Positions 1 to 49,320 are shown, numbered from the stretch's first letter. The stretch: DNA of 64,000 bases from Candidatus Binataceae bacterium (GCA_030041155.1 JASHOJ010000187.1:1446-65445); one strand, 5' to 3'. The notes: generated by a model not told the origin, from the sequence alone. Made by a program: numbers and translations.

Positions 1-582
1 GGCGCGCAGACCTCCATCCAAGGACAGGGCAAATAGCGGAAGCAGCGCTGGACTCCGGCTCGCAGCGGATGCGGCGTAGAGTCGATCCTCATCTTCAGCA
101 GTGAGCGCCTTCCCGACATCCCGCCTCTCCTTAAGCCAATCGACATCTTCCGAGAGGGTGTGCCAGAGACGAAACGTTCTGAGAATTTGCCTGAGGACGC
201 CTATCTCGTAGTTCACGCTCCGAGGGCCGAGGCCTTCTTTGAGGCGCTTTCTCTGCAGTGCTCTGATGTCGGAGATGTCGATGTCGCATACCAGGCGATC
301 CTTGAATTCGACAGTCAAAGACTCAACATATTGCCTGTAATTCCGCAGCGTGCTTTCGCTTTTGCCGATCTTCGCTTCTATCCAATCCTTCGCGGCGACC
401 GGAAACAGCGGCGTGCGCTCCCTCTTTCCGATCCGGTTAATGCCAAGCTCAAGCTCACGCCGGCGAGCGCGTTCCGCCTCCTTCGCGACCGTTTTCGAGT
501 TTGTCTTTGCTGAATCGCGAATGACCTGGCCCTGAAACAGGAATTTGTACCAGTAGACCTGACCTCGTTTGTAAACGCTCAT
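1..582 (-). CDS. int: Tyrosine recombinase / phage-type integrase, N-terminal part (C-terminus lies beyond window start)
   Basis: Reverse-complement of 541-582 starts ATG AGC GTT TAC AAA CGA GGT = MSVYKRGQVYWYKF..., a classic integrase N-terminus (SAM-like domain). The frame stays open to position 1. It is absent from the ORF track because it is partial. Confidence 0.7.
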   Translation of the reverse strand, partial: MSVYKRGQVYWYKFLFQGQVIRDSAKTNSKTVAKEAERARRRELELGINRIGKRERTPLFPVAAKDWIEAKIGKSESTLRNYRQYVESLTVEFKDRLVCDIDISDIRALQRKRLKEGLGPRSVNYEIGVLRQILRTFRLWHTLSEDVDWLKERRDVGKALTAEDEDRLYAASAASRSPALLPLFALSLDGGLRA

Positions 583-612
583 ATGCGCTCTCGATCGAAG
601 CTGTGACGATCT

Positions 613-813
613 TCAGACGGCGCGCTCACTTGCCTCTGCCAAATAGCGACGAACTTCCTCATCGAGAAGTACCACTCTCCTTCCGAGGTGGGCGGCGCGC
701 AATCTACCGCGCTTTATTTCAAGCCGCAGAAAGGGGACGGACACGGTAAGACTCCGCGCGAGTTCTTCGAGCGTCCAACCAAGCTTTGAATCAATGTGAT
801 TGTTCGGCCTCAT
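613..813 (-). CDS. xis: Excisionase / AlpA-like (MerR-superfamily) DNA-binding protein
   Basis: Internal Met of ORF 613..891. 'LGWTLEELARSLTVSVPFLRLEIKRGRLRAAHLGRRVVLLDEEVRRYL' matches the helix-turn-helix of excisionase-family proteins. It sits next to int. Confidence 0.5.
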   Translation of the reverse strand: MRPNNHIDSKLGWTLEELARSLTVSVPFLRLEIKRGRLRAAHLGRRVVLLDEEVRRYLAEASERAV

Positions 814-887
814 ATCGTCACCTTTTAACTGAGCCGCGGCGGGGAAACGTCGGTCCGTCTTCCTCGCCGCAGCAACTCCTGAATAAA

Positions 888-1280
888 TCAAGCCGGAATC
901 TCGGCATCGCCGAGGACGGCTTGATCGGAGGACAGCTCGTCGGCACCTGCATGAGTCGGCGTCCCGAGAAATTGGACTCGCGCGGCTAGTATCTCAGTAC
1001 GCCGGCTCGTTGAACCGTTGCTTTCCCACTCTCGGGTCTGCAGGCGGCCCTCCACAAAAACCTGCCTACCCTTCTTGAGATACTCGTGGCAGGTGAGCGC
1101 GAGCTTTCCCACGACCACGACCCGGTGCCATTCGACCCGCTCCTGGCGCTTGCCATCTTTATCAACGTAGGCCTCGTCGGTGGCGACCGAGAGGTTGACG
1201 ACCGGCATGCCGGCGGGCGTGTAACGAATCTCGGGGTCTTGCCCAAGATGCCCGATGACCATAGCTTTGTTGAGCGACAT
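888..1280 (-). CDS. ssb: Single-stranded DNA-binding protein
   Basis: 'MSLNKAMVIGHLGQDPEIRYTPAG...' is a canonical SSB OB-fold N-terminus. Typical ICE accessory gene. Confidence 0.85.
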   Translation of the reverse strand: MSLNKAMVIGHLGQDPEIRYTPAGMPVVNLSVATDEAYVDKDGKRQERVEWHRVVVVGKLALTCHEYLKKGRQVFVEGRLQTREWESNGSTSRRTEILAARVQFLGTPTHAGADELSSDQAVLGDAEIPA

Positions 1281-1343
1281 GAGATTGACCTCCTGTTGTG
1301 CTCCGTGCCGGGGGTAGCGGCCTCGACACGGAGCTTTTGTTTA

Positions 1344-1532
1344 CTACTCTCTCGAAACCCTGCTCGCGTTCCACGTAGCGTCCTCGGCCGCCGCCTCGCC
1401 GTGCTCCTTCATCAGCTTCGTGAAACAGGTCCAATGGAACACCGCAGTGCTCGCCCAGAGGTGCGCCTTGAGATAGTTCTCGTCGGTCCTCACTTTCTGA
1501 CCACAACGGCCACAATTTCCCTGATACATCAT
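1344..1532 (-). CDS. Small zinc-ribbon protein (hypothetical)
   Basis: 62 aa with CGRCG...C/H motifs. In tandem with the next small Cys-rich ORF. Confidence 0.3.
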   Translation of the reverse strand: MMYQGNCGRCGQKVRTDENYLKAHLWASTAVFHWTCFTKLMKEHGEAAAEDATWNASRVSRE

Positions 1533-1542
1533 CCTTCACTCC

Positions 1543-2769: not shown

Positions 2770-5553
2770 TCACCAACTGATTCCGCGGCTGCGCTTGACC
2801 TTTTGCTCCGGCCGGATGCCCTGCTTGAGTCGGGCGGCGAACGGGTCTTCGATGTCGATCGGCCTGAACCTCGGCAAGGATCGTCGCTGGGCGGGCGAAA
2901 GATGTTCGAGTGCGGTCGCCTTTAACTGCTCGCGTCCTACTGCGCGGGCCAGCGCTTCGGCACTGTCCGTGTAGATGCGAGCGTCATGTCTCGCGCGGCT
3001 GAGCGAGACGTAGAACTGTCGGCGATTTACCAACCGGACGCCGCGCTCGGTGTCGACGTTGACGATGACACGATCCACGGTCGCGCCCTGAGCAGCGTGC
3101 GAAGTCGACGCGTAGCCGTAGTCGATGTGGCGAAGCCGCGAGCTGGCCGCGGCTATTTCGCGACCCCTGTCGGTGCGGAGGCGAGTTTGAGCGGCGTCGA
3201 TCGCGACGACCGTAGCGAACTGGCCGTTGGCGACCCCGAGCGCCCGGTCCGGCGCGCGAAACTGAATTCGGTCTCCGACGGCAAGCGTACGCGCCTCGGA
3301 GCGGAAGACCTCGATACCCCGCAGGCGGCCAGGACGGTACTCGACGGTCTCACCACTCTCGGTTCTAAGTTTCAGGATGTTGCGCTTGGGATCCGACGCC
3401 TCGACCCTGGAATAGCTGCCGGAGGCGATGCCCAGCTTCGAGCTGCCACGACGAAAGCGAAGCACGTCGCCCACAGCGTAATGGCGCGCATGCCCCCGCT
3501 GCGCGCGGGTCAGATCGAGATTCGACAGCGTGGCGACTTCGATACCCTCACGCGCGATCGCACCACGCCCGACCAGCAGCTCGCGGATGACGCGGTTAAG
3601 CTCGGTGCGCTCCTCGATGGCGGGACTCACAACCAGAGTCGTTTGTCCGGCCCGATGCGAAACCAGATAGTCCTCCGCGATTGCACGGTAGCGGTCGGTG
3701 GCCTGAGGTATCTCGTGGATGCGCGACTGCTGGGAAAGCGCGGCGACGCTCTCGGCAAGCTTTCCAGCCGCCGCAAGCTCAACAGCTTCGCGCAACGCTG
3801 GATCGCGCTGGCGGCGAATCGCGGTAAGCGACGCGACCGTCATTCCCGCCTGCCGCATTTGAAAGAGCGGACGGCCCGCTTCGATTGCATGATGCTGCCG
3901 CTCGTCGCCGACGAAGACTATGCGTTCAACGCCTATTTCTCTGGCGAGATGGAGCAGCCGATTCACCTGGCGGGTGGCGAGCAGGCTCGACTCGTCGACG
4001 ATCCACAATTCCTTGCCCTGCCTTTCAGGCTTCGGATTTTCCAGTAGGCTCGCCACGGTGCGCGCCAGCACACCCGCCTCGTTCAGAGACTTGACGCTGC
4101 CGCTCGTTGGTCCGAAGCCGCGCACGAGGTAGCCGCGTTCTTCGGCCAGTTTGCGGATCGAGCCGACCGTGGTGGTCTTGGCGGCACCGGCGCGTCCTTC
4201 GAGTGCGCTCATCCAGTCACGAGTCGAGAGGGTCGTTTGGGCGACAAGAACCTGGTCGGCTGCGAGACCACGGCGCACAGCCCAGCGCTTCACCTCGTCG
4301 GCGCTCGCAATTGGTTCCGATCTGCCCCGGCCTTCGTGCATAAGCGCGATGTTGTCGCGCTCAAGCACTGCCATCTGCGGTGTGGTGAACGCTCCGATCG
4401 GATGACGATGGTTTGGTGCCAGATCGATTAGCCTGCCATCATTTCTGTGGGCCTCGATGGCGGCACGCACGCCATCTAGTACGCTGCCACCCATCGCGTG
4501 CTGGAGAGTGAAAGTCTCGAGCTCGCGCCGATCCGGCGCGGCGTCGCGCTCAATCGCATGCGCGGTTGCGTGGCGTACCGCCTCACCGAGCTCGGCCTCA
4601 CCTACTTTGGGCACGATCGATTTGCGGTTGAGGGCCGCTTCGGCGAGGCGCGCGAAAGGAATTTCGTAAGCCCCTGCGCGCTCGCGCCATTCAGCCTTGA
4701 GGGCCTGCTCGTCGCGCTGGTCTTTCGAGAGACGCGAGCGATGCGCGGCGATCTGTGCGGCGCTGGCGCCGTTAATGCCGAGCTTAGCAAGCTCGCGCTC
4801 GATCTCCTGGCGACGCAAGGAGAAAGCCATCACCTGCTCGCGTGCGTAACCTTCAAGCTCCCAGCGTCCGTCGCTTCCGGCGATGGTGATCGGGTAGCCC
4901 AGCCTCTGAACTGCGCGCGCGAATTCGGCGCGGTAGACGGCGGTGGCGAATGCTTGCGAGCGGTAGATTTCGACCGGATCGAGTCCGCGCCATGCGCCAT
5001 CTGGACGGCGCGTCATGTTCATCACCACAACGTGGGTATGCAGGTGCGGGTCAGGGCCGTATCCATCATTGGTGGCATCTTCCGTCGGCCTGGCCGCGAT
5101 ATGATCGAAGCGGGCAGCGACAACCTTGCCCGTCGTCACCCACTCCTGACCGCGATGCATGCGCGCCTGGGCAAACCGCTCGAGTTCCTGAAGAGCCGTT
5201 TCGACGGCGCGGCGATGCGCTCCGATGAGGCGTGAATCGTCGCCGACCAGCGCCTGTACGCTCACTGATTTGGGAGCGTTGAAGGTCGCGTCCCAACCTG
5301 CGCGCTTTTGTTCACCCTCGCGCTGCGCCGCCTGGACGATAATCTCGCCGCTCCTCGGGTCGAGGCCGTTTAGCACCGCGCGAAAATTCGCGGTATCGAT
5401 GTCGCCCGCGAGCCCCAGCTCCGCCGCGCCCTTACCGAACCAGCGTCCGATCACGCGCTGCTTCTCGGTGTAGTAGTCGTCGCGGCTGTACTTCTCTTCG
5501 TAGTAGGTCTCGGCCTGACCCGCGCTGAGGGCGCCTTTTGACATCACCAACAT
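2770..5553 (-). CDS. traI: Conjugative relaxase/helicase, TrwC/TraI (MobF) family
   Basis: N-terminal TrwC relaxase domain (..YYTEKQRVIGRWFGKGAAELGL.., HTHVVVMNMT histidine triad). C-terminal RecD-like helicase ('GRAGAAKTTTV' Walker A, 'WIVDESSLL' Walker B). 927 aa. Confidence 0.9.
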   Translation of the reverse strand: MLVMSKGALSAGQAETYYEEKYSRDDYYTEKQRVIGRWFGKGAAELGLAGDIDTANFRAVLNGLDPRSGEIIVQAAQREGEQKRAGWDATFNAPKSVSVQALVGDDSRLIGAHRRAVETALQELERFAQARMHRGQEWVTTGKVVAARFDHIAARPTEDATNDGYGPDPHLHTHVVVMNMTRRPDGAWRGLDPVEIYRSQAFATAVYRAEFARAVQRLGYPITIAGSDGRWELEGYAREQVMAFSLRRQEIERELAKLGINGASAAQIAAHRSRLSKDQRDEQALKAEWRERAGAYEIPFARLAEAALNRKSIVPKVGEAELGEAVRHATAHAIERDAAPDRRELETFTLQHAMGGSVLDGVRAAIEAHRNDGRLIDLAPNHRHPIGAFTTPQMAVLERDNIALMHEGRGRSEPIASADEVKRWAVRRGLAADQVLVAQTTLSTRDWMSALEGRAGAAKTTTVGSIRKLAEERGYLVRGFGPTSGSVKSLNEAGVLARTVASLLENPKPERQGKELWIVDESSLLATRQVNRLLHLAREIGVERIVFVGDERQHHAIEAGRPLFQMRQAGMTVASLTAIRRQRDPALREAVELAAAGKLAESVAALSQQSRIHEIPQATDRYRAIAEDYLVSHRAGQTTLVVSPAIEERTELNRVIRELLVGRGAIAREGIEVATLSNLDLTRAQRGHARHYAVGDVLRFRRGSSKLGIASGSYSRVEASDPKRNILKLRTESGETVEYRPGRLRGIEVFRSEARTLAVGDRIQFRAPDRALGVANGQFATVVAIDAAQTRLRTDRGREIAAASSRLRHIDYGYASTSHAAQGATVDRVIVNVDTERGVRLVNRRQFYVSLSRARHDARIYTDSAEALARAVGREQLKATALEHLSPAQRRSLPRFRPIDIEDPFAARLKQGIRPEQKVKRSRGISW

Positions 5554-5556
5554 GGC

Positions 5557-7425
5557 CTAATCCCACCCTCCGAGAGCCGAGTCTTGTTGTGCTTGTACAT
5601 TCAGCGTCGTGACAGGCTTGGTAGGGTTTCTCTCCGGAGAAACCACGGCTTCGGTGTCTCGTCGCAGAACAAAGGCTGGAGCCGTTCTCTTGGGCTCCGT
5701 CCATTGCAGTGCTACGCGAGCGCGGTCATATCCGGCGATGCACAGGTAGCCTTCGAGAGGTGGAAGTTTCTGGATCTCTGCGGGCAAGACCACTCGCTCC
5801 AGCGTCTGATGAGGTTGCAAGTTAAAGCCGTCGCGATAGAGCGAGGGTCCAGTTAGCGTGGTCATTTGGAGGCGAATCACCTCGCGCTGACCCAGCGTGC
5901 GGCTGGCCCACTCTGCGGTCTCGGCCTCGTCTGACCGCAGAATCAGTTTGGTCGCCGGCGCCGAGAGCAGCGTCACGGTGCGGTCACGTCCGTAGATCGA
6001 CTGAAGCTGCGAGATCGCCTGAAAGCCGAATACCACACAGAGGCCACGCTTGCGCCCGCGTACGACGAGGTTTTCGAGCTGACCCTGATAGTCGAGCGCG
6101 CCCAGCTCGTCGATCACGATCCAGACCTGCTCGCGCGCGCCGTCAAGCTCGGCGGCCAGAAGCTGGCGCACTAGACAGTCGAGCCACACGTTCTGGAGCG
6201 GGAGCGCCGCTGCCCGAGAATCCTCGGTCGAAGTCAGGAACAGCCAACCCCGTCGCTGCCGTACCCATTCAACGGCGCTCCATCTGGTACGACCGGGCAC
6301 CTCGGGCGGCAGGTAGCACAGCGGATTGGTCGCGTTGGTTGCCATCGCGACTATCCCAGCGCCTTGGTCGTGTGCACCTGGATCAATGAGCGCTTCCGCC
6401 GGCGTTCCGGCTAGGGCTTTCTTGAGCTGTTCGCGCGGCAACGTCAGCAGTTGAGTAATCGTTTTCGCGGTTTGTGGCTTGGCAGTCTCCAAAATGCTGA
6501 CCAGCGTGGTGCGCCCCGAGCGACGAAAGAACCGGTCGGCGCCGCTCTGGGCGAAGCTGTTCGGCACGTCCGGGATGAGTGACTGCGCCAGCGCCTCGGC
6601 GTCCATGCAAAAACTTTCCGCTCTCAGCTCAGCCCAGGGCGACCACGACGGGCAGCGGTCATCAAGCGGGTTCAGAACCGCGTCGCCACGTTCTGGCCGA
6701 TAGAATTCCGAAATGTATTCGGCGTCGGGATCGAGCACGACGCCAATCCCGCCGCGCGCCTCTATCTGGCGCAGCATCTGGCGAATGCAGTTCGACTTGC
6801 CCGAGCCGGTTTTGCCTGTAAGCGCAAAATGTTGCGGCTCCAGGTCTGCGGGGATCGACACGTTTGCGATATGGATTGGTCGCACGCCGCTTCCGCTCGT
6901 CGATCGTCGAAGCATCGGGATACGCAATGCTCCGCGCGCGGCAGCATTCTCCATTGCACCACTCAATTCCCGACTGCTGATAAGCTGCAGGCCGCGCACG
7001 AGGTGCGCATCGGTGCTCTTGCGACGAAGCAGCATGACGGCCGCCACGGTGATCAGCAGGGGAGCGACCGCGCCGTAGCGCATATAGTGGACCAGCCATT
7101 CGCCGAACGAGTGCTGATAGAAATGCCTGGCGTTGAGAAACGGATAGAGCACCTCAACCGGATAGCGCCGCTCCATATAGGGCAGTGTCGGATGAAGGAA
7201 CGGGATGCTCAGCTTCGTGAGCAGCCAGGCTGCGAACCACTGCACGAAGAGTTGATGGCCGAAGCTCGGGAAATAACGTCCAGTCCAGAACCAGACGAGT
7301 TCGAGCGTTGTCGCCAGCCATGAAAAGAGGCAGAGCTTAAGCCAGACGATGACGAAGCGCGCGTTCATCCGCGCGCCGGTAGCGTAAGCCTGCCAGCTTG
7401 CAGCCTGTCGTCCGCCCGACCACAT
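5557..7425 (-). CDS. traG: Type IV coupling protein (TraG/TraD/VirD4 family)
   Basis: N-terminal TM helices. 'TGKTGSGKSNCIRQM' Walker A and 'VWIVIDELG' Walker B. 622 aa, directly upstream of the relaxase. Confidence 0.85.
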   Translation of the reverse strand: MWSGGRQAASWQAYATGARMNARFVIVWLKLCLFSWLATTLELVWFWTGRYFPSFGHQLFVQWFAAWLLTKLSIPFLHPTLPYMERRYPVEVLYPFLNARHFYQHSFGEWLVHYMRYGAVAPLLITVAAVMLLRRKSTDAHLVRGLQLISSRELSGAMENAAARGALRIPMLRRSTSGSGVRPIHIANVSIPADLEPQHFALTGKTGSGKSNCIRQMLRQIEARGGIGVVLDPDAEYISEFYRPERGDAVLNPLDDRCPSWSPWAELRAESFCMDAEALAQSLIPDVPNSFAQSGADRFFRRSGRTTLVSILETAKPQTAKTITQLLTLPREQLKKALAGTPAEALIDPGAHDQGAGIVAMATNATNPLCYLPPEVPGRTRWSAVEWVRQRRGWLFLTSTEDSRAAALPLQNVWLDCLVRQLLAAELDGAREQVWIVIDELGALDYQGQLENLVVRGRKRGLCVVFGFQAISQLQSIYGRDRTVTLLSAPATKLILRSDEAETAEWASRTLGQREVIRLQMTTLTGPSLYRDGFNLQPHQTLERVVLPAEIQKLPPLEGYLCIAGYDRARVALQWTEPKRTAPAFVLRRDTEAVVSPERNPTKPVTTLNVQAQQDSALGGWD

Positions 7426-8041: not shown

Positions 8042-8302
8042 TCATCGCATTTCTGAATGGGCAGGGCCGCCGTTCATGTCCGCAACGCTGTTGGAATGGC
8101 GCTTGAGCCACGACTGGAACTTGCGGTCGGACTCCACGAAGTTGCGGACGATCTCGACAATGATTCTGCGGATGCCGATGGCGTCACCGTGGATGTGCTG
8201 GTAGTAGGTGGCGTATCCGTCCAATTCAGCCTTGAGCTTGCCGGGCAAGGTGACGTTGACCTGCGCTGACTTCAGCTGCTGCTCGACTTTGTTGAGCCTC
8301 AT
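8042..8302 (-). CDS. Small conserved ICE protein (DUF2274-like, putative)
   Basis: 86 aa. Position between trbI/traF and traG matches the small conserved ORF of Tn4371-like ICEs. Family assignment is from memory, not a search. Confidence 0.35.
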   Translation of the reverse strand: MRLNKVEQQLKSAQVNVTLPGKLKAELDGYATYYQHIHGDAIGIRRIIVEIVRNFVESDRKFQSWLKRHSNSVADMNGGPAHSEMR

Positions 8303-8972
8303 GGAAACCTCCTGATTGACTTCTGAGTTCGCGTGGAGAGATGAACCGAGCGTAAGCGCTATTCACGATGGCCATCGCAATCAGCATGGCGATGGCCGCG
8401 ATAAACACGATGTAAGCAAAGAGCAGCGCCTGCGAGACCGCTGGGCTTGACCAGACGATGACTGGAATCAGCTGCGAGATGACACTGCTGATCGCAACCG
8501 GACCGAAGTACCGGCTGTCGATCCCGCGCGGATGTTGGGACAAGACCCAGACCTGTCGGGTGCGGACGCGATAATTTCCAAACTGATAGTGCTGGAGGGG
8601 TTGCCCTTCCGCATCACGGTCTAGCGGCGCACTGTCGGGCCAGAGTGTTCCGTCGATGCGTACGCCATGCGCTCCGAGCTGCACCACATCCCCAGCGACT
8701 GCAGCGACGCGTTTGATCAGCGGGATATTGGCGGGGGCATACCGACGGAGGACCAACGCCGTCGGACCTGTAGGCTGCTTCAACCACACCAGGGCTCCGC
8801 GCTCGGCGCCACCCGGGGCAAGGCGGTAGATACCGACCGGCTCGCTTGGCGTCAGATTGAGGCAATACCCGAGCGCTGCTGGCAGCCGATAGCCGATCAG
8901 ACCCGTACCTAGGAGCACGGCGTAGCCTACGGCAACGGTTACGATGCGGAGTGTCCAGCAGCGTTTCTTCAT
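8226..8972 (-). CDS. traF: Conjugal transfer signal peptidase TraF (S26 family)
   Basis: 'LIKRVAAVAGDVVQ' signal-peptidase I-like motif with an N-terminal TM helix. Start overlaps the trbI stop. The ORF runs ~70 aa longer than typical TraF and overlaps 8042..8302. Confidence 0.7.
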   Translation of the reverse strand: MKKRCWTLRIVTVAVGYAVLLGTGLIGYRLPAALGYCLNLTPSEPVGIYRLAPGGAERGALVWLKQPTGPTALVLRRYAPANIPLIKRVAAVAGDVVQLGAHGVRIDGTLWPDSAPLDRDAEGQPLQHYQFGNYRVRTRQVWVLSQHPRGIDSRYFGPVAISSVISQLIPVIVWSSPAVSQALLFAYIVFIAAIAMLIAMAIVNSAYARFISPRELRSQSGGFHEAQQSRAAAEVSAGQRHLARQAQG

Positions 8973-10108
8973 CGCGCGTTCTCCATAGTGTTCGCGGCGT
9001 CCGCATAGGGTCCCGAGAACACCAAGTCACGCGTGACCAGGACGCGGAAGTGATAGCCGGGCCTGATTTGGATCGTGGGAGCGACTTGGATGTTGGCCAT
9101 GTGCCCCATCGCCTGCTGGCCGAGCTGTTGCGCTGCTCCCATTGCGGCCATCTGGCCGGGATTCATCGAGTAGGCACCCGTGCCATACGCTCCGCTGGTC
9201 ATGGTGGGATAGTCCGACATCATCATTCCTGCGGAGATTGCCGACATGAGCAGCGCCGGCGCCCACACTTTGGCGTAGTGATGGTTCACTTGATCCTGAA
9301 AGCCGGCGTAACCCGATGCGTCGCTTCCCGTCAGATCTGGAAGATTGAGTTCGCCGCCGTTGGGAAACACGATGGTGCGCCACTTGACCATCAGGCGCTC
9401 CTGCGACGGAATGAGCTGATTGGAGTAGGAGCCGATGAGCTTGCTGCCCTGGGGAATCAGAACGTATCGTTCGCTCACACTGTCCTTCACGTCTTGGGCC
9501 ACGCGGCCAAGCACGTCGCCGGGTATGTCGGAATTAATTCCGGTCTCGAGCGTGCCGTAGATGACGGTCCCCGTCGTAATGCTGTAAGGCGATGCGGGAT
9601 GCGGGTCGGCGATGATCGGAGCGCCGCTTGGATTGCCGCCTTGTCCCTCCACTGGTTCGCCTCCCGCTGAAACCAGACGGGGCGTTTCCAGCACCTGTGA
9701 CTGTCCCTTCGGTGCCACGAGTAGATCTGATGCGAGCGCCTTCTCATATTCTTCGCGACGATGTTCAGCGGCAGGGTTCGGCGCTGTAGGAGGAACATAG
9801 TTCTGCGCTGGCGGCTGGTACTGCGGGACGGGTGTGGCGACCGCCTGCATAGTCGGGGACGGGCTGGGCGACGCAGCAGAAGCTTCCGCATGCGCGACAC
9901 GGTTGGACTCATGATCGATCCAACTATCGTCGGCCTTCTGATAGCTGACGTTTTTCTTTGGCTGCGTGACCTGTCCCGCGTAGTGGATCGCGAGCACGCC
10001 GCCCAGTGTCCCGACGCCGAGCAATCCTGCGATCGCCAGCCCCCACCAGGGCTTGAGTCTGTGAACGAGTTCCTCGGGCTTGACGGTTCGTGGTTGCGTT
10101 TGATCCAT
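8969..10108 (-). CDS. trbI: TrbI / VirB10
   Basis: N-terminal TM helix, Pro/Gln-rich linker, and a conserved C-terminal VirB10 domain ('TGTVIYGTLETGINSD...RVLVTRDLVF'). Confidence 0.85.
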   Translation of the reverse strand: MDQTQPRTVKPEELVHRLKPWWGLAIAGLLGVGTLGGVLAIHYAGQVTQPKKNVSYQKADDSWIDHESNRVAHAEASAASPSPSPTMQAVATPVPQYQPPAQNYVPPTAPNPAAEHRREEYEKALASDLLVAPKGQSQVLETPRLVSAGGEPVEGQGGNPSGAPIIADPHPASPYSITTGTVIYGTLETGINSDIPGDVLGRVAQDVKDSVSERYVLIPQGSKLIGSYSNQLIPSQERLMVKWRTIVFPNGGELNLPDLTGSDASGYAGFQDQVNHHYAKVWAPALLMSAISAGMMMSDYPTMTSGAYGTGAYSMNPGQMAAMGAAQQLGQQAMGHMANIQVAPTIQIRPGYHFRVLVTRDLVFSGPYADAANTMENAR

Positions 10109-10111
10109 CGC

Positions 10112-10987
10112 TTAGGCTCCCGTCCGTGCAATCGTTATCTGCTGCTGCTCCTTGCCGGTGCCTGATACCAGCACCGCCTCTTTGAAGAGGCGGTCAACAA
10201 CGTAGTAGCGGCCTTTGACCTGGTAGTTGACCAACGCATCGGCGCCGTCCGCATTGACCATCAGCGTGGGTGCATCAGACGCCAGTAAGGTCTGCGGCAT
10301 CTCGATGTAGACGCGCTCGCCATCGTCGAAGGTCTGTACCGGCTTCCATGGAACGTTGGGGCCGGAAACGGTGTAGGCGAAGTTGAGCTTTGCTAGGGGA
10401 GTGGGCGTTGCGGCCTCGCGCGCTTTGCGCTCAAGTTCGCTCTTTCTGTTTGTTTCGGCAGCGATGACCTCCTTGGGATAGTAGAAGGCGATGCGGGGCA
10501 TATATTTCCCGCTGGACTTTAGAGTCAGATGATAGGTATGGCGGCTGGTAAGAATGATGAGGTTGGTCGTGATGCTCGCCGCCTTGGGCTTCACCAGCAC
10601 GCGCCCATCGACCGCCTGGATCATCCAACGCTCGGTATCGCCGGCGGCTGCATCGTCAGCACTCTCACCTGGCGCCAACAGAATCTCCGTGACGCGGAGC
10701 GGTTCGCATAGGACAACGAAATCAGCATCTGCTTCATACGGAAACCGCGTGGTGATGCCTTCGTGAAGCACGGGCGGCTGTCCGCTCCGCTGATAAGTTG
10801 CTATTGCGGTTCGGACATCAGCAGGCTGCTTATCGAGCACGCTTTCGGGCGGGAGCGGCGCTGGTTCGGATTCCAGCAACTTGGCTGGTACTAATTCGAT
10901 CGGCTGGGCAGGTTGCCGTGCCGAGCATCCTGACAGAATTGCTGTGGTTATGATTGCTGCGCTTATAAAGGCCGATTTACATTTCAT
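10112..10987 (-). CDS. trbG: TrbG / VirB9
   Basis: Lipoprotein-type signal 'MKCKSAFISAAIITTAILSGCS' and a VirB9 C-terminal domain. Start at an internal Met that overlaps the trbF stop. Confidence 0.85.
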   Translation of the reverse strand: MKCKSAFISAAIITTAILSGCSARQPAQPIELVPAKLLESEPAPLPPESVLDKQPADVRTAIATYQRSGQPPVLHEGITTRFPYEADADFVVLCEPLRVTEILLAPGESADDAAAGDTERWMIQAVDGRVLVKPKAASITTNLIILTSRHTYHLTLKSSGKYMPRIAFYYPKEVIAAETNRKSELERKAREAATPTPLAKLNFAYTVSGPNVPWKPVQTFDDGERVYIEMPQTLLASDAPTLMVNADGADALVNYQVKGRYYVVDRLFKEAVLVSGTGKEQQQITIARTGA

Positions 10988-11649
10988 GAGCCTTGCTCCT
11001 CGCTCCAGTCGATCTGAGTCACATAAAGGCCGATCGGATTGCTGAGCATGTGATCGGGGTCGGGCGCCGCAAGCTGCACCGCGAGCAAGGCGCGCCAACG
11101 GGCGGTCGACAGCACGTCGCCATTCAGGCTCCGTGTGGTTTCTGTCCAGCGAACCTCGTAGGTGCCGCTAGGCGCACGCAATACCGAATCGACCTCGGCC
11201 TGAATCGTCTCCTTGCTCGCAAGTTCGAATGGCGGGTGGTTGCGATACCAGACCGGCAGTACCGTAGCTGCCTCGCCGCGCGCCATGTCATAAACACGAT
11301 GAAGGGCCGCTTTTTCTTCTGCGCCGTCGCCAAGCACGCTGCGGGCATCGGTGATGAACCGTGCGAGCTCGAACCTGATCACCGCTTCGTTTTCCGATTG
11401 ATCGGCGGCCAATGGCTGTAGGAGGCCGCTGACCTCGCCCGCCTTATCCAGCTCGATGACGTAGGGAACGACGCGCGGTTTGCGGGCGAGATACAGTCCC
11501 AGCGTGGTTGAGAAAAGTAACGCGAGCGCCATTGCGATCATGCTGTGGCGTAGTATCTGGTTGCCGCGTTCGAGACGTTCGTACTCCGACCGGAGTGCAG
11601 CCGACGCAGCGAGATATGGACTGTCTGATTTGGCGTTGAAGGTCGTCAT
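10984..11649 (-). CDS. trbF: TrbF / VirB8
   Basis: '...LAASAALRSEYERLERGNQILRHSMIAMALALLF' N-terminal TM helix plus NTF2-like VirB8 body. 221 aa. Confidence 0.8.
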   Translation of the reverse strand: MTTFNAKSDSPYLAASAALRSEYERLERGNQILRHSMIAMALALLFSTTLGLYLARKPRVVPYVIELDKAGEVSGLLQPLAADQSENEAVIRFELARFITDARSVLGDGAEEKAALHRVYDMARGEAATVLPVWYRNHPPFELASKETIQAEVDSVLRAPSGTYEVRWTETTRSLNGDVLSTARWRALLAVQLAAPDPDHMLSNPIGLYVTQIDWSEEQGS

Positions 11650-11670
11650 ACGAGGGCTCCATGGCAGCGC

Positions 11671-12891
11671 TTACAGCTTGCTTGTTCCTTTGCCGTTGCC
11701 ATTGATGCGGCTCGTGGCTGGCGCCTTGCTACCAAGAGCCGACGTACCCGTTTGGCTGAGAGCTCCGGTTTTCGGCCAATCGTTGTTGAATCCTTGCGTT
11801 TGTGATGTCGATCCAAGAGGTGTGGTGCGTTTGCTCAAGTCCTCAGTGGTGGGAGCCGGAGGCGGTTTCAGCTGATCCTCCCGCTGCTTGTCCCACAAGC
11901 GCATCGCACGGGTCGCGCCTTCGTCGGCAAGATTGATGACACCGTTGAAGGCCTGGCCGCCCAATTTGCCGGCGACCTCAAGCGCCTTGGGTATGGCCTT
12001 GGCGCCGTCGCGGATCGCGCTGGCCAACGTGGTGCCAAGAATGATGTCACCCAACGTGGAGCTTACGGTGTGATCGACGATCTGTGCTGCTTTGGTGGGA
12101 ATCCGCGCGGTGATAACCGCGAGAAGGAAGGCCTCAACCGCCGCTTCGATGCCGTAGTACCAGTTGGTCATCAGCTCTGTGACGTGCCTCCCGCTGTCCA
12201 CTGTCCAGTTTCTGGCGAGCTGCGTGCCGACGCCTACCATCAGGTAAAGGAAGAACAGCCTGACGGCGATTCCGAGTGCCCAGCCGAAGTAGCCTTCGCC
12301 AAAGCGCCAAGTGAACCGGGTACCGGAAGTTGCTACCAGCGCGGTTCCCGCTACGCAGGCGACATAACCTTCGACGAGAGTTTCCAGCAGGATGCAGGCG
12401 ATGATCGCGAAGCACACGAGGATGATGAGAGCGGAGAGAAGTAGGAGGAGCGCATTGAGGGTGGCGCTAGGATGAAATACGGTCCATCCCGACGCGATCG
12501 CCTGCAGAAGGATCAGCGATAACTGAAAGCCCTGCGTCATGACGCCGCCGGGGGTCATCGCGCTAGCCGGCACGTGACCCGCAACTGACGCCCAACCGGT
12601 AAAGCTTAAGATCACGCCGTTCTGCAAAAAGTCGGGGCCGTACTTAAAGAGCGTGAACATCGCCATGACGCCCGCGATAGTTCGCACCAGATCGATCGCA
12701 AGCTGATCGAAGTCGCGTCGAAGCGTGCCGGTGATTCCAACGAGAATGAGTTCGATAGCCGCGAGCATGTAGAAGAGATTGGTTCCGATGCTGTACAGAC
12801 CTCCCAGCCATGTCGCGGTGACCGTCTGGAATTGGGTGAGTACGTCTTGAAAGACGCCGAATTGGGTTGGAGGCATTTTACTGTCCCTCAC
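11671..12891 (-). CDS. trbL: TrbL / VirB6
   Basis: Polytopic membrane protein with a Gly/Thr/Ser-rich C-terminal tail, typical of TrbL. 406 aa. Confidence 0.8.
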   Translation of the reverse strand: MRDSKMPPTQFGVFQDVLTQFQTVTATWLGGLYSIGTNLFYMLAAIELILVGITGTLRRDFDQLAIDLVRTIAGVMAMFTLFKYGPDFLQNGVILSFTGWASVAGHVPASAMTPGGVMTQGFQLSLILLQAIASGWTVFHPSATLNALLLLLSALIILVCFAIIACILLETLVEGYVACVAGTALVATSGTRFTWRFGEGYFGWALGIAVRLFFLYLMVGVGTQLARNWTVDSGRHVTELMTNWYYGIEAAVEAFLLAVITARIPTKAAQIVDHTVSSTLGDIILGTTLASAIRDGAKAIPKALEVAGKLGGQAFNGVINLADEGATRAMRLWDKQREDQLKPPPAPTTEDLSKRTTPLGSTSQTQGFNNDWPKTGALSQTGTSALGSKAPATSRINGNGKGTSKL

Positions 12892-13384
12892 TGCTGAAAT
12901 TCGGATCTGGAATCCCCTTCGGGATCACTGCTCCTGATGGGCACTGCCAGGTGGATGACCCCGGTTTGAGATAACTCGGGTAGTTTGTGGTGCATCCAGC
13001 AGCGTCCATTTCACGGAAAGGCAGCCACTCTTTGCGGACAAAGTCGTACTGGTAGCCACGGTGAAACATTTCATCGTTCTTGGCCGCGGCTCGGTTCCCT
13101 TCCTCAGCTTTTTTGCGCTGATCCGCCCGCATGATGTCGTTGACGGATAGGCAGTTCGGATAGTTGGCAAGTACGGTTTGCCCGCACAGCCGCTTCGCTT
13201 CTCGCCACGCGGAGGTATTCGCGTCGTGTTCGCGTTGCCAGAAGGTCCGGTCAAACTGAGTTGTAGGAATGGTACTGCCCAACGCTGTAATGGCCTCTTG
13301 ACTTTTCGCCGGCGACTCACCAGGCCGGGGTTTGCACGCAGCAAGCACGGTCACCGCAAGCGCGATTGCGAGACTCTTTTTCAA
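12878..13384 (-). CDS. Lipoprotein, putative entry-exclusion TrbK-like
   Basis: 'MKKSLAIALAVTVLAACKP' lipobox. Located between trbJ and trbL, as in Tn4371-like ICEs. Confidence 0.45.
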   Translation of the reverse strand: MKKSLAIALAVTVLAACKPRPGESPAKSQEAITALGSTIPTTQFDRTFWQREHDANTSAWREAKRLCGQTVLANYPNCLSVNDIMRADQRKKAEEGNRAAAKNDEMFHRGYQYDFVRKEWLPFREMDAAGCTTNYPSYLKPGSSTWQCPSGAVIPKGIPDPNFSSEGQ

Positions 13385-35298: not shown

Positions 35299-36407
35299 AT
35301 GACAAGAATATCCAGCAAAACGCTGCTGAAAAGACGGCTGCCGGCACCCGAGACAGCTCGCAGGCACACGATGATAGCTCTCACGCCGAAGGACCGTCAT
35401 CCCCCAGGCTGAATCAATCGGATGTCGGGGGTGCCCACATTCCTTCGGGACCGAGCCCAATGTCGGCTCCATCGCTTACAGGTTATTACTCAGCGCGGCG
35501 CGGCCAGCCGGGGGCCCTCGTTAAGGCGCTTCGCCTGGGACCCGGCACAGGGTTTCCGGATACCGAGCGACAAACAATTCTCGCCGATATCAGCCGACTT
35601 GATCCGTATCTAGCGAAGTCTGTCACTCTGGCCCAAGCTGCAACGGACGTGGCAAAAGATCGGGCCGTCTTTGATTGGATCGGTGAACTCGTCGTTTACG
35701 AACTCCGAGGTCATTGGGCGCCGGAAGCGGGCCTCTCCGCCGCAGAAACGTTCGATGAGATCTCCCGCTCGATACGCGCCCAGATGCAGCGAAAGGAAGC
35801 TCGCAAAAAGGGCTTCAACCTGCTGCTAACCGCACTCGCCTGGCTTGCGCCTCGCGGCCTCCAGCCCGAGGACGCTCTGAGAGCGATCGAACACGCTCTC
35901 ACCGTTGCCAAGCGGAGCAGCATTACAAGCGACGAGCGGCAGCGCCAAGCGATGGCAGAGCTGGTGAAGATCAAAGCCAGCCCCAAGCTTCTCAAGGCGT
36001 TGCTCCAGATTCTCGCTCCCTGGCGCACGCGTACTCTCGAGGTCGAAGCACAAGCCGCCGCGCACCGCGAAGAAGTGGCCGCCCTAAATTCCCGAATACA
36101 AGCGTTGGAAGGACGCGTTACGGAATCCAGGGAACTGACGACAAATCTCGAGGCGCGACTGGCGGATCACGGCCGTCTGCTTGAAGACCGTGAGCGTAGG
36201 CTAAGCACACAGCACAATCTTGCCCAATCGCAGCTGGCCCTTACTAGGGGAACGATTAACGGTTGGCTCGAAAACGAAGTGCGACCGCGCCTGGCAGATG
36301 CATTGGATGCGGTCGAGTGCGAGCCCCCGCGCCACGAGGTCTTGCGCGAGCGCTTAAAGGCGGTCCTGGCTTTGCTTGATCAGAAAAAAGGGGGGCACTG
36401 GGGATGA
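35295..36407 (+). CDS. Hypothetical protein, disordered N-terminus plus long C-terminal coiled coil
   Basis: ATGA overlap with the upstream stop. The C-terminal ~150 aa have heptad-like spacing (..AALNSRIQALEGRVTESRELTTNLEARLADHGRLLEDRERRL..). Confidence 0.45.
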   Translation: MNDKNIQQNAAEKTAAGTRDSSQAHDDSSHAEGPSSPRLNQSDVGGAHIPSGPSPMSAPSLTGYYSARRGQPGALVKALRLGPGTGFPDTERQTILADISRLDPYLAKSVTLAQAATDVAKDRAVFDWIGELVVYELRGHWAPEAGLSAAETFDEISRSIRAQMQRKEARKKGFNLLLTALAWLAPRGLQPEDALRAIEHALTVAKRSSITSDERQRQAMAELVKIKASPKLLKALLQILAPWRTRTLEVEAQAAAHREEVAALNSRIQALEGRVTESRELTTNLEARLADHGRLLEDRERRLSTQHNLAQSQLALTRGTINGWLENEVRPRLADALDAVECEPPRHEVLRERLKAVLALLDQKKGGHWG

Positions 36408-38260
36408 TTTTCGGCCTCGACTTTGGAACCACGAATTCGCTGGTGGCTCTGGTACAGGGTGACCGCGTAATCCATTTTCTGGACGGCAACGAGCCACATC
36501 CATCCGTAGTGTGGTACCGAAGCGGTGACGCTACTGTCGTTGGCCGGATCGCAAAAGAAAACCTGGGGTCGCGCCAGAGTGGCGTCATCGGTGACTTTGT
36601 GCGGTCGCCGAAATTCAATCTGGGAAAGGGCCATCCGGTGTATGTAGCTGGCCGGAACTTAGCGGCCAGCGATGTTGTGTCAGAAATTTTAGCGTTTCTA
36701 CGCAATGACGTAATGCGAGAAGAGCGCGGCCTGAAGGATATCAGTTTCGAGCGCGCCGTGGTCACAATTCCAGTCACCATGCATGGTCCGGCTCGGCAAG
36801 AATTACGCGAAGCCGCGCACAAGGCCGGACTTCGAATCCACCAGTTCGTTCACGAACCGCTCGCCGCTCTTTATGGCCATCTCCGCGCGCATCCTGATTT
36901 CAGACGCCGAATCGCCGAGCTCGAGAACAAAGTTGCTCTGGTTTTCGATTGGGGCGGTGGCACTTTGGATCTGACGCTCTGCAAGTTCATGCGCGGCAGT
37001 TTGGTACAGATCGCGAATCGTGGTGATACCGACGTAGGAGGCGACCGGTTCGACGAGGCAATCGCCGATTGGGTGCGTGAACGCCACAGAAGGCAACACT
37101 CCTTGCAGTCTGGCCGAGAGGACACCGAACTCGCCAAGGCCCGATTGATCGAGCAGTGTGAGCTCGCAAAAAAACAGCTTTCAATTCAAAACAGTACATT
37201 CATCTTTGTCAGAGACTTCATTCAGCGGTCTAGTCCAGAACACACACTCCAGGTAGCCATAACGGCCGACGACCTGAGCACTATTAGCGATCGCCTCGTC
37301 ACTCAGGGTCTCGAAAATATCGACAAGCTTCTGTCTTCGGCCGGCTATGATCAAAGGTCAATTGCATTTTGTCTGGCGACCGGAGGAATGTGCCGCGTTC
37401 CCTTTATTCAGCGGCGTCTTCAAGAAAAATTTGGCTTCGACCGTGTTGAAGCTCCGGAACATGCCGAATGGCTTATCGCCGACGGCGCAGCCTGGATCGC
37501 TCATGATGGCCTTCCCCTGGAACTGGCCAAGCCTTTCGAGCTTTATCACGCGGACAACACATACGTGCCGATACTGCACGACAAGCGAAGACTCCCAATC
37601 GAGAACGTCCAAGAATCGCCGGTATCGCTCCAGGTCTATTGCGTCGACCCGAGAGACGGTCTCGCTAAGCTCCAATTTGCGCGCCCAACCTGGCCGGGTC
37701 GCACGTCGCCTTCTGATCCGCGCCAGATCTATACGACCCAGACTCTCAAGGTCGACCCCAATGCTCCGCCATTTGTCGAACGAATCATGCTCGACATCAC
37801 GATCGATCACAACCTGGTTGTCAGCGTTCGCGCCAGATCTGGTGAGGACGACAAACTTACTGAGGTGCATGACCTGGAATTCGGCTTGCATCTCGGCCCA
37901 GCGTCAAACGCGGGGTCGTCCGATCGGGCCGGAGGAGGTTCGTCCAGTAACGACCCGCTACCCACTGCAAGCAATCAGACCATAGGGGCGGTCCGGATTC
38001 GATCCAACGTCCTTCTTCAGAGTCATGAAATAAATGGCGGTTATCGCTGGGACTTGGTTCCAGGTGACATTGTCGAGCAATACTCTCCTCGCTACTGGCC
38101 AATCGTCCTTAACGCGCGCCAAATAGGCGAGAAAATGTATTACGTCCCGTGTGCATTGTGTCACCAAGGAATCTACGAAATTATGCTTCGAGGATGCAGC
38201 GAACCACGATGTCCGGAGAGCCGCAGATCCCATCCCACGACCCAGTCGGCGCGGCACTAA
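36404..38260 (+). CDS. Hsp70/DnaK-like actin-fold ATPase (non-canonical, 618 aa)
   Basis: 'MIFGLDFGTTNSLVAL' phosphate-1 motif, 'LVFDWGGGTLDLTL' (DLGGGTFD-like), 'FCLATGGMCRVPFIQ' adenosine motif. The C-terminal 230 aa are unlike a DnaK substrate-binding domain. ATGA overlap with the upstream gene. Confidence 0.75.
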   Translation: MIFGLDFGTTNSLVALVQGDRVIHFLDGNEPHPSVVWYRSGDATVVGRIAKENLGSRQSGVIGDFVRSPKFNLGKGHPVYVAGRNLAASDVVSEILAFLRNDVMREERGLKDISFERAVVTIPVTMHGPARQELREAAHKAGLRIHQFVHEPLAALYGHLRAHPDFRRRIAELENKVALVFDWGGGTLDLTLCKFMRGSLVQIANRGDTDVGGDRFDEAIADWVRERHRRQHSLQSGREDTELAKARLIEQCELAKKQLSIQNSTFIFVRDFIQRSSPEHTLQVAITADDLSTISDRLVTQGLENIDKLLSSAGYDQRSIAFCLATGGMCRVPFIQRRLQEKFGFDRVEAPEHAEWLIADGAAWIAHDGLPLELAKPFELYHADNTYVPILHDKRRLPIENVQESPVSLQVYCVDPRDGLAKLQFARPTWPGRTSPSDPRQIYTTQTLKVDPNAPPFVERIMLDITIDHNLVVSVRARSGEDDKLTEVHDLEFGLHLGPASNAGSSDRAGGGSSSNDPLPTASNQTIGAVRIRSNVLLQSHEINGGYRWDLVPGDIVEQYSPRYWPIVLNARQIGEKMYYVPCALCHQGIYEIMLRGCSEPRCPESRRSHPTTQSARH

Positions 38261-47126: not shown

Positions 47127-47646
47127 GTCGAGCCGTGGCGCTACTGCCAGGCCATCGGCCGCACAGGCGAGACGCGTGTCGGTCGTCTAACCGCGCTCGT
47201 TCATATGCGGTACTTCTTTATATCGACCGTGTTTGGAATTGCCGCCTCTGCTGTCGCCGTCGCCGTTACGACGATCGAGATGTATCCGCCCGCGCTGGCG
47301 CGCGCCGTTTTTTGATTACGGTGGGTCGTCCTGAAAGGGTGAAATCCGGTCAATTCCGAGGAAGAAATGCCATCAGAGTTTGATCGCGAAGGCGGTCGGC
47401 TCGTTCTTCCTAGAGCGTGAGACATTTGTGAGAAACGCGGCTTCAAGCGAGAAATCGACGTGGCCGATTCTGTGCCACCGCCGTGCCCACAATTTGGGCC
47501 GTTTCACCGTTTCATGTCGACATTTCTGGCGTCTTTCGCGCTCGACAGCCTCAATTGACAACCTTGAGCAACGAGTGGGATACAGCAAAGGGTAGGGGTC
47601 ACAATAGGGCGCGGCGTAAAGTCCACAAAGGAGGAGGGCAATAGAA

Positions 47647-48753
47647 TTGCCGATCTCGGAAGAAATCATCGGAGAGGCGACTGCTCGCTATGAGCGGGAG
47701 CGTGACCGCTATCTCAAACTCGCCGCCCGGGTTGCTGACATTTGTCGGTCTGAAATCGTGGAGGCGAACGCAATACGCGCTCAAGTCACCTGGCGCGCGA
47801 AGAGTGCAAAAAGTTTTGCAGACAAGCTCAGACGTTTTTCAAAAAGGCCCGAAAAGAAATGCGAGACCGTCGACAAAGTTTTCGTTATGGTTAGCGACTT
47901 GGCTGGTGTTCGCATCGCGACCTACCAGCCAGAGACGGAATCGCGCGTCACACAGGAGATTCAAAAGCGCTTTCGAGGGACAGATGGACTTGATGTTAAG
48001 CCGGAAAAAAAAGACAAGGTTGCACAAGGCGGATTTTATCGTGCGACGCACTGTCAGGTGGTGCTTCCAGATGACGACCTGGTGGGGACCTATGAAAACC
48101 TAAAGGCCACGAGTTGTGAAATCCAAGTCTGCTCCATGATGGCGCATGTCTGGAATGAAATTGAGCACGACATCGGCTACAAACCCGAGGGAACGGGCCC
48201 TCAAGAGAAAGAGCACGGCCTTCTTCAAGCACTTGGCCACCTGACTCGTTCGGGCGATGAGATCATCACACGGCTGCTGGAAGCCAATACGGAACGTCTA
48301 CAAGAGCAGCAGGGCGAATTTGAAGATGTGTTTGAGTTTGTCGCCAGGCTCAAACCGCACTTCCCAGATACTGACTTCACTCTATACTCCGGACAGCTCT
48401 TCGATGAGGCGCAGGCGCTTGGATTGTCCTCTTTCGAGAAGTTGAAGGCGGCGCTGGGAGGAGATGCGAACTTCACTCCGGAAGTCGCCAGGAAGAAGCT
48501 GGCAGAATTCAACGACTATCTGACGAAGCGCCAGGAACCAGAGTGGCTTCTCAACGAAGAATCATCAGATGTCGTGCTGATTTTGCTTCTCGAGAAGTTT
48601 GCAAAGCAGATAGAAGAGAACCACCCGGCCGGCCGCGGCATGGGTCGTCCTCCAAGAATCAGAAGCATTGCGACGCGGTACCGACAGTACCGCAACGATC
48701 TCGAGCAAATCACTGTGGCTTCTGACGGAGTCGCCGAGCCTCACCCCGGATGA
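47647..48753 (+). CDS. RelA/SpoT-domain protein, fused toxSAS-antitoxin (CapRel-like) candidate
   Basis: TTG start after an AAGGAGGAGGG RBS. 'DLAGVRIATY', 'GFYRATHCQVVLP', 'EIQVCSMMAHVWNEIEHDIGYK' are synthetase-domain motifs of small alarmone synthetases. 368 aa with a ~190 aa C-terminal extension. Confidence 0.6.
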   Translation: MPISEEIIGEATARYERERDRYLKLAARVADICRSEIVEANAIRAQVTWRAKSAKSFADKLRRFSKRPEKKCETVDKVFVMVSDLAGVRIATYQPETESRVTQEIQKRFRGTDGLDVKPEKKDKVAQGGFYRATHCQVVLPDDDLVGTYENLKATSCEIQVCSMMAHVWNEIEHDIGYKPEGTGPQEKEHGLLQALGHLTRSGDEIITRLLEANTERLQEQQGEFEDVFEFVARLKPHFPDTDFTLYSGQLFDEAQALGLSSFEKLKAALGGDANFTPEVARKKLAEFNDYLTKRQEPEWLLNEESSDVVLILLLEKFAKQIEENHPAGRGMGRPPRIRSIATRYRQYRNDLEQITVASDGVAEPHPG

Positions 48754-49002
48754 TTGGCCAGCAAGAGGCCAGCTGTTTAGGAGGCGACTCTCGAGGCGGC
48801 AATAGTGTCCGATCCGATTCCGGCTGGCCGTGCTAAAAGGGCAGCGGGATCCGAACGGACACGACTGAAATTGAGTTCAATGCGCCGGTATTTGAGAATC
48901 GAACTGTCGTAGTCTGGCTACGATTCGACGAAAGAAACCAAACGAATCAAGCGAGAGGACTGCCTCGGAACGCCTCTCAGCGATTCTAATTCCGCGCGGA
49001 TC

Positions 49003-49046
49003 GCTGTGCCCGATTTTGTGCCCTGCTGTGCCCAAAATTGTGCCCT
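49003..49046 (+). repeat. Two tandem 22-bp direct repeats (4 x TGTGCCC at 12/10/12-bp spacing)
   Basis: GCTGTGCCCGATTTTGTGCCCT / GCTGTGCCCAAAATTGTGCCCT, read directly from the sequence, ~150 bp inside the tRNA fragment. Confidence 0.5.
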
Positions 49047-49196
49047 TACTGTTTACCGCTGCCGATCACTCGATGGCGCTCGGTGGGATCTATGAAAGCG
49101 TCTGAAGTCCCTCTCCGCCAAAGGTTTTGGTGACCTCAAGTGTCAAGAAAGGATACCGGTTACTCCCGACGCTTCGGAACCTGAATAGAATTCGTA

Positions 49197-49235
49197 ATCA
49201 GCAGGTCGTCGGTTCGAATCCGACGGGTGGCTCCA
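49197..49235 (+). other. 3' tRNA fragment (variable region + T-arm + acceptor 3' strand + CCA); putative attR of the ICE
   Basis: T-stem GTCGG, loop TTCGAAT, stem CCGAC, then GGGTGGC T CCA. No complementary 5' acceptor strand (GCCACCC) or anticodon arm lies upstream, so it is not a full tRNA. Confidence 0.5.
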
Positions 49236-49299
49236 AAAAACCCAATAAAATCATGCACTTTTGACGGCGATCGGCTAGCTGAATTGACAATAAGCATTT

Positions 49300-49320
49300 T
49301 GTGTCACCACTGTGTCACCA
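49300..49320 (+). repeat. Tandem duplication TGTGTCACCA(C)TGTGTCACCA just outside the tRNA fragment
   Basis: Read directly from the sequence. Confidence 0.4.

Follow-up and report, generated by a model that had tools for sequence, protein, structure and literature searches.

ICEclc and ICEMlSym are integrative and conjugative elements (ICEs) that reside in tRNA genes. Genomic islands integrated in tRNA genes are catalogued in Islander (PMC4383910). An element of this kind is described here from a stretch of 64,000 nucleotides (the window) of Candidatus Binataceae bacterium (GCA_030041155.1, JASHOJ010000187.1:1446-65445), whose positions 1-49235 very probably form the larger part of an ICE of ~49.8 kb that is inserted in tRNA-Thr(CGT) of an uncultivated Binatia-type bacterium and would recombine through an integrase contacting TGTGCCC repeats on the arms of its attachment site. 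The traits it has in common with ICEclc, ICEMlSym, and the Islander islands are (i) an integrase beside a regenerated tRNA, here predicted from relatives, (ii) a displaced 3′ tRNA fragment at the far end, and (iii) cargo between the conjugation module and the distal end. It differs from them in its Binatia-type uncultivated host, an integrase that is not P4-type, an integrase gene that, judging from relatives, is convergent with the tRNA and whose open reading frame (ORF) reaches into an arm dyad, and cargo that is wholly defence-related. No paper on integrative and conjugative elements in Binatia was found by full-text search of one literature library.

For the recombination system, the reference is the anatomy of lambda Int, L5 Int, and the P4/HPI-type integrases, in which an N-terminal three-strand sheet and helix are followed by core-binding and catalytic domains. 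In lambda- and L5-type systems, both attP arms also bear short direct repeats spaced by helical turns, and in L5 the arm sites form adjacent pairs while the core extends over the 3′ part of a tRNA gene. The element resembles its reference systems in these respects; unlike them, it uses putative sites with a TGTGCCC motif, a copy number of 4 + 2, and rigid spacings of 144 nt and ~50 nt that are specific to this family. For DNA transfer, the closest system is R388 (MOBF, MPF-T), with which it shares a TrwC relaxase-helicase, a TrwB coupling protein, and VirB2-B11 homologs. Unlike that of R388, the transfer system here is chromosomally integrated, and the nearest plasmid matches of its relaxase, annotated MobF relaxases from Acidobacteria, are 35-38% identical. 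Tandem accretion of ICEs and cis-mobilizable elements (CIMEs) is known from ICESt1/ICESt3 of Streptococcus thermophilus. The mechanism proposed below is a textbook one, and the locus is of value for annotation and comparison more than for new concepts: from Binatia-type soil bacteria it provides an ICE with clean limits, and with it an ICE family, and the large anti-phage block it carries bears on the spread of defence islands among uncultivated lineages of the soil.

The displaced tRNA fragment and the integrase

The right end of the element is marked by the displaced 3′ part of tRNA-Thr(CGT) at 49190-49235 (plus strand; ATTCGTAATCAGCAGGTCGTCGGTTCGAATCCGACGGGTGGCTCCA, 46 nt), which extends from the anticodon loop to the CCA and represents the attR core. 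It is identical at 46/46 nucleotides to positions 31-76 of the intact tRNA-Thr(CGT) in a related locus (L007) and also to the fragments in L003 and L004. The first-pass annotation had recognized the fragment and its CCA end and had let it begin at 49197, which is 7 nt too far to the right. A complete cloverleaf is not present here, only tRNA positions 31-76; ARAGORN reports no tRNA anywhere in the window, and Rfam returns no match in 48900-49500. The window holds no second copy of the fragment (searched as a 32-mer with ≤3 mismatches; 1 match vs 0 expected). A chance tRNA-like sequence was ruled out by the 46/46 identity set against 0 expected. Beyond 49,450, the genes look chromosomal or housekeeping (BNR protein, Na/H exchanger, NikR, FAD oxidase, acyltransferase, and ketopantoate reductase).

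At the left end, an ORF that opens with MSVYKRGQVYWY... at position 582 of the minus strand overruns the window start, leaving 194 aa at 1-582, with ~220 codons missing from the window. These 194 aa match tyrosine integrases at ≤90% identity (E 9e-108). The database homologs are named integrases, and the full-length ones (290-415 aa) bear the catalytic domain PF00589; the ORF is therefore the N-terminal half of a tyrosine integrase, in agreement with the earlier assignment. A 96%-identical integrase fragment (P0111) was set aside, being a truncated relic in a different context.

The position of the left end is predicted from relatives, which were gathered by a protein-based scan with one genome per species. 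This yielded ten loci, all from Binatia-type metagenome-assembled genomes; the eight related loci with an intact tRNA were all picked by protein alone. In L007, whose integrase is 84% identical to that of the window, an intact tRNA-Thr(CGT) is convergent with the integrase, and 1,178 nt separate its CCA end from the start of the integrase. This tRNA 3′ sequence also occurs ~1,175 nt from the integrase start in L003/L004 (90%) and L008 (81%), while relatives at 57-60% integrase identity display the same geometry beside tRNA-Val(TAC) or tRNA-Pro(GGG). Carried over to the window, a distance of 1,175-1,178 nt would place the tRNA 3′ end ~596 nt to the left of position 1 and give the element its length of ~49.8 kb. 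The regenerated intact tRNA would thus lie ~600 bp left of the window and be convergent with the integrase gene. The earlier proposal that the intact tRNA and attL lie beyond the window start holds in this sense, by comparison with L003, L007, and L008 rather than by direct observation.

Of the hallmarks of an ICE, the window shows an integrase at one end, a relaxase with its coupling protein, mating-pair formation genes, and attR, while attL is predicted from relatives. TrwB and TrwC homologs are also found upstream of the integrase in L007, L008, and L012-L016, that is, in most of the related loci, which therefore represent an ICE family. The full conjugation set, together with the 46-nt tRNA fragment at the right end, supports the first-pass annotation of a tRNA-gene-integrated ICE of at least 49 kb.

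Two side observations concern integrase genes of relatives. In L007 (10001-11248), the 415-aa integrase ORF spans the proximal TGTGCCC dyad and 70 nt of the convergent tRNA-Thr, such that the 3′ end of the integrase gene overlaps attL. In L003 (197-1459), as well as L004 and L005, an integrase 90% identical to that of the window has an in-frame TAG at codon 293 in three different samples; past the TAG, the frame extends across the catalytic motifs, the TGTGCCC dyad, and the tRNA fragment.

TGTGCCC repeats as candidate arm-type sites

Two adjacent dyads, each TGTGCCC-N5-TGTGCCC, occupy 49003-49046 (plus strand) and form the putative arm-type sites of the integrase-distal (P) arm. The two 22-nt copies (49003-49024 and 49025-49046), which had been noticed at first reading, are 86% identical and make up the top-scoring tandem repeat of the window. 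TGTGCCC starts at 49005, 49017, 49027, and 49039, with spacings of 12/10/12 nt. The whole window holds only 10 copies of the motif against 6.5 expected, and four of the ten fall within 41 bp, so that they constitute a real cluster. The remainder of the P arm is a spacer of 143-144 nt (49047-49189, plus strand) that separates the arm sites from the core and places the tRNA fragment 144 nt past the repeat block. Side by side with tRNA-Thr-targeting relatives (L105, L115, L081, L092, and L086), this spacer is partly conserved.

The four-copy block recurs in 48 metagenome loci with a gap of 2-3 nt between the dyads, as in the window. These loci were picked by the TGTGCCC pattern itself; the tRNA fragment and its fixed offset played no part in the selection. 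None of the 48 has an intact tRNA within 600 nt of the block. In 31/45 loci with enough flank, the start of a tRNA T-arm lies exactly 162-163 nt downstream of the block. The fragments begin at the anticodon loop and derive from Thr(CGT), Val(TAC), Val(CAC), and Ala(GGC), with Val(CAC) and Ala(GGC) assigned by loop reading; several other loci have degenerate fragments. A tighter pattern was used on the metagenomes because a looser one, run against viral contigs, gave 61 unrelated arrays of a 12-nt period. Dozens of IMG/VR contigs of ~30-70 kb (L018-L078), mostly from sample 3300045988, have such TGTGCCC arrays, e.g., GTGTGAAATCTGTGCCCTAGATTGTGCCCTTGGCTGTGCCCC. These have no relation to the ICE attachment site and may be phage iterons or coding repeats.

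On the integrase-proximal side, the dyad TGTGCCCAATTTTGTGCCC is found ~45-55 nt from the tRNA 3′ end in 7/8 intact-tRNA loci, with one mismatch in L009, and has the same orientation as the TGTGCCC of the window regardless of which tRNA is used. As L003 and L007 read the dyad in different coding frames and L012 has it in non-coding DNA, its conservation is at the DNA level. A family box, AATCA-N-S-S-AC-W-W-T, follows the integrase-side tRNA end and precedes the dyad by 30-36 nt. There are 21 matches to this box in the 1.07 Mb of sequence compared, and all but three lie 4 nt past the CCA end.

The predicted fold of the integrase agrees with a role in arm binding. Its window portion has an arm-binding-like domain at aa 1-50 and a SAM-like core-binding domain at aa ~60-137. 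The AF2 model of the 194 residues (mean pLDDT 84) has a three-strand sheet and a helix followed by a helical domain, with strands at 3-6, 9-16, and 19-24, a helix at 30-48, and pLDDT values of 84-88 across the sheet and helix. The best Foldseek matches in the PDB are full-length lambda Int chains (1z1b_A, 5j0n_F, and 1z1g_B) with 188-194 columns aligned, at ~18% identity to lambda Int in this comparison; the isolated arm-binding domains of P4-like/HPI integrases (3rmp_C and 3jtz) are matched as well. No Pfam arm-binding family matches the window integrase or the homologs scanned, and PF13356 (P4-type) is absent from the integrase. The N-terminus models as a lambda-Int-like arm-binding domain. 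Among 21 homologs, mean identity is 76% over residues 1-50 vs 51% over the core-binding domain, as would be expected of a fixed arm specificity combined with a changing core (tRNA) specificity.

The TGTGCCC repeats thus appear to be arm-type sites of a heterobivalent integrase of the lambda/L5 kind, because both arms bear them in one orientation and at fixed distances, and because integrases with different tRNA targets have them in common. An N-terminal arm-binding domain is present in the model, and repeats occur on both sides of the core, the proximal side being known from relatives.

Directly upstream of the integrase gene, at 613-891 (minus strand), lies a gene for a small Xis/AlpA-like helix-turn-helix (HTH) protein that is likely the recombination directionality factor. 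Its match to PF12728 (HTH_17, E 2e-5) falls slightly under the curated cut-off. The true start is probably internal, which would give a protein of ~66 aa; in relatives, a gene of 66-67 aa occupies the same position.

In the proposed mechanism, the integrase would be heterobivalent, as are lambda and L5 Int. Cleavage inside the tRNA-like core, probably in the anticodon loop, would fall to its catalytic and core-binding domains, while the conserved N-terminal domain would bind TGTGCCC at four sites (two dyads) on the distal arm, 144 nt away from the core, and at two sites (one dyad) on the integrase-proximal arm, ~50 nt away from it. Such arm contacts would build the intasome on attP when the element integrates and, joined by the Xis-like protein, the attL × attR complex when it excises, after which the excised circle would be transferred via the relaxase, coupling protein, and secretion system. 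The resulting attachment-site map (4 + 2 TGTGCCC, fixed spacings, proximal box, and anticodon-loop crossover) is precise enough for automatic annotation of the ends of related elements in metagenomes, and the ICE family to which it applies is widespread in soil.

Several observations weigh against this interpretation. The left junction of the window's own element is unseen, attL being predicted beyond the window start, and leftward extension by exact-protein look-ups (SSB, BNR protein, and Na/H exchanger) gave Logan contigs of ≤2.5 kb or nothing. An empty site was not found in related genomes, where the contexts of BNR homologs (78-79% identical) are non-syntenic and without a tRNA. GC content has no sharp boundary. 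In the pattern-selected metagenome loci, the independent evidence consists of the association with tRNA fragments only, and the contact between the integrase and TGTGCCC is a predicted one. Finally, the integrase of a 90%-identical relative has the in-frame stop at codon 293, and the C-terminal half of the window copy is outside the window.

These two points on the integrase also favour the view that the element is a fossil, with its limits correctly drawn and excision or transfer lost, for instance through a broken integrase. Truncated integrase copies elsewhere (e.g., L133) and the tandem arrays and degenerate fragments common in the family point the same way. A fossil is nevertheless unlikely, given that the conjugation ORFs in the window are long and uninterrupted, the attR core matches the tRNA perfectly, and the arm repeats are intact.

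Distinctly less probable is the view that TGTGCCC is bound by a protein other than the integrase (the Xis-like protein or a regulator) or acts as replication iterons. It draws on the phasing of the repeats at about one helical turn; lambda Xis also binds direct repeats in the P arm. The Xis sites of lambda, however, are on one arm only, whereas TGTGCCC is present on both, oriented alike. A change of tRNA target leaves the motif unaltered, no part of the integrase is better conserved than its N-domain, and where the integrase belongs to another lineage, a different dyad takes this position. The "iteron-like" label given to the repeats at first reading is misleading, as nothing links them to replication: no Pfam Rep family matches the scanned ORFs beside the repeats. 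Replication iterons or an origin were rejected on the grounds that the neighbouring ORFs encode a RelA/SpoT-domain protein and cargo and that the repeats track the attachment core at a fixed distance.

The least probable view, that an ICE (~1-21 kb) and one or more independently inserted islands (~22-49 kb) have accreted at the same tRNA, is suggested by a fall in GC from ~0.60-0.65 to 0.52-0.58 after ~22 kb and by frequent tandem accretion in related loci, but the interior (1-49235) has no second integrase, tRNA fragment, or TGTGCCC block, and the P arm with the motif of this integrase lies at 49003 and not at ~21 kb.

For the integrase family, a broader evolutionary proposal can be made, for which the odds are close to even and slightly adverse. 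One fixed arm code (TGTGCCC dyads, a rigid distal spacer of ~144 nt, and a proximal spacer of ~50 nt) may have been kept while the core moved among at least five tRNAs (Thr-CGT, Val-TAC, Val-CAC, Ala-GGC, and Pro-GGG), with other dyads (GTGCCA, TGACAGCCA, TAGGTAGCA, AGGTGCCTA, TGTCCGAA, and TGTGTCACCA) in sister lineages that share these tRNAs. If true, this would be a natural modular series on the independent evolution of arm and core specificity and would also reveal how elements in tandem at one tRNA are kept from cross-reacting. As a separate observation, positions 1884-3500 of L079 (oriented) hold, contiguously, a distal arm, a Val(TAC) core, the proximal box, a TGTGCCC dyad, and an integrase 91-95% identical to that of L011. 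This arrangement could represent either an excised circle, assembled across its attP, or copies of one element in tandem.

A probable orphan arm beside the element

Immediately outside the element, 49236-49330 (plus strand) resembles an integrase-proximal (P′) arm in having both a box and a dyad. The box AATCATGCACTTTT is at 49249-49262, 13 nt past the CCA, and two exact copies of TGTGTCACCA (49300-49309 and 49311-49320) follow 37 nt past the box. The first-pass annotation had correctly reported this tandem pair and its position outside the element and had listed it, along with TGTGCCC, among the candidate arm sites of the integrase. For TGTGCCC, that candidacy is upheld by the presence of the motif on both arms at fixed distances; for TGTGTCACCA, it fails, since the pair lies outside the element, in what is most likely the arm of a different, integrase-less one. 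To the right of 49235, the window contains no integrase remnant, second tRNA fragment, or second or matching distal (P) arm, and neither a TGTGTCACCA dyad nor a living element that carries one was found among the fetched loci. On comparison of sequences, our working hypothesis is that the TGTGTCACCA pair is most likely the orphan proximal-arm dyad left by an older element at this tRNA, now without its integrase.

Similar junctions occur in related loci. Where another element follows a distal-arm junction, the dyads are lineage-specific, namely GTGCCA (L084), TGACAGCCA (L095/L100), TAGGTAGCA (L086), AGGTGCCTA (L105), and TGTCCGAA (L087/L118). Past the dyad, L084 and L095/L100 have a tyrosine integrase from another lineage, while in L105 an ICE backbone 75-79% identical to that of the window begins ~3.7 kb past it. 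The organization of L105 (6458-14800) is itself composite. It holds two distal-arm blocks separated by 440 nt, with a decayed core behind the first and a Thr fragment behind the second; after the Thr fragment come the AGGTGCCTA dyad and an ICE backbone (SSB 79% and TrwC 75% identical to those of the window) with no intact integrase ORF. This locus is evidence of module swapping and accretion at tRNA-Thr.

The right flank of the window is comparable to ICESt1/ICESt3 accretion in that a presumed integrase-less relic with attachment-arm sequences is directly beside a complete ICE at the same target. Unlike in that case, the dyad of the putative relic differs from the ICE's own, and the integrase described here would thus not obviously act on TGTGTCACCA. 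Between the orphan arm and the housekeeping-like genes, 49451-51964 encodes a 347-aa ORF with a Cys-rich, zinc-ribbon-like C-terminus and no Pfam match, convergent with an NTP_transf_8 nucleotidyltransferase gene. These genes could be leftover cargo of the older element.

Conjugation backbone and defence cargo

The conjugation module follows the xis-int region, and all of its genes are on the minus strand. A single-strand DNA-binding protein (SSB) is encoded at 888-1280 (PF00436, E 4e-33) and adjoins the integrase in relatives too. A conserved 390-aa protein is placed by gene order between the SSB and the MOBF (TrwC-type) relaxase-helicase at 2770-5553 (PF08751, E 2.8e-84, plus AAA_30), which is followed by the TrwB/VirD4-type type IV coupling protein at 5557-7425 (PF10412, E 2e-94). 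The type IV secretion (mating-pair formation) block, assigned by Pfam, spans 8226-18673 and includes a TraF-like S26 peptidase (8226-8972), VirB10 (8969-10108), VirB9 (10112-11098), VirB8 (10984-11649), VirB6 (11671-12891), an 886-aa VirB4 with a weak match (14085-16745; CagE_TrbE_VirB, 22.1 bits), the VirB2 pilin (16864-17292), and VirB11 (17720-18673).

Three further minus-strand genes lie between the secretion block and the cargo: a 221-aa protein homologous to the M78-peptidase-like gene of relatives (18823-19488), an HTH_3 regulator (19485-20156), and an ArdC-like anti-restriction protein (20141-21091). By inference only, the 221-aa protein and the HTH_3 regulator may have an ImmR/ImmA-like regulatory role. 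The pair (18823-20156) is directly upstream of xis-int in L006-L009, L012, and L013, ~7 kb upstream in L014/L016, and ~18 kb off in the window, past the secretion genes. Its shifting position indicates that the backbone has been rearranged.

The cargo occupies ~27 kb (21253-48753, plus strand) and, by Pfam and PADLOC, comprises a BrnT/BrnA toxin-antitoxin pair and a defence island. The island contains a DndB-like protein, an HKD+Snf2 helicase, two Type IIG restriction-modification enzymes, a PDC-S68 helicase, an Hsp70-like three-gene cluster, an FRG protein, and a RelA/SpoT-domain protein. Four of these genes form a block at 22082-34017: the DndB-like protein (PADLOC DndB, E 9e-125), the HKD+Snf2 helicase, a Type IIG/ISP-like restriction-modification enzyme, and the PDC-S68 helicase (1262 aa, 1341 bits). 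A DndB homolog without other Dnd genes beside a Type ISP-like enzyme is an unusual combination. Three co-directional genes at 34153-38260 encode two proteins of ~380 aa with no Pfam or PADLOC match and then a 618-aa Hsp70-like ATPase. Lying within the defence island, this trio may be an uncatalogued Hsp70-centred conflict system. The final cargo gene ahead of the attachment site (47647-48753) encodes a 368-aa protein that has an N-terminal RelA/SpoT nucleotidyltransferase domain and no PADLOC match; its size and position suggest a toxic defence protein of the small-alarmone-synthetase type.

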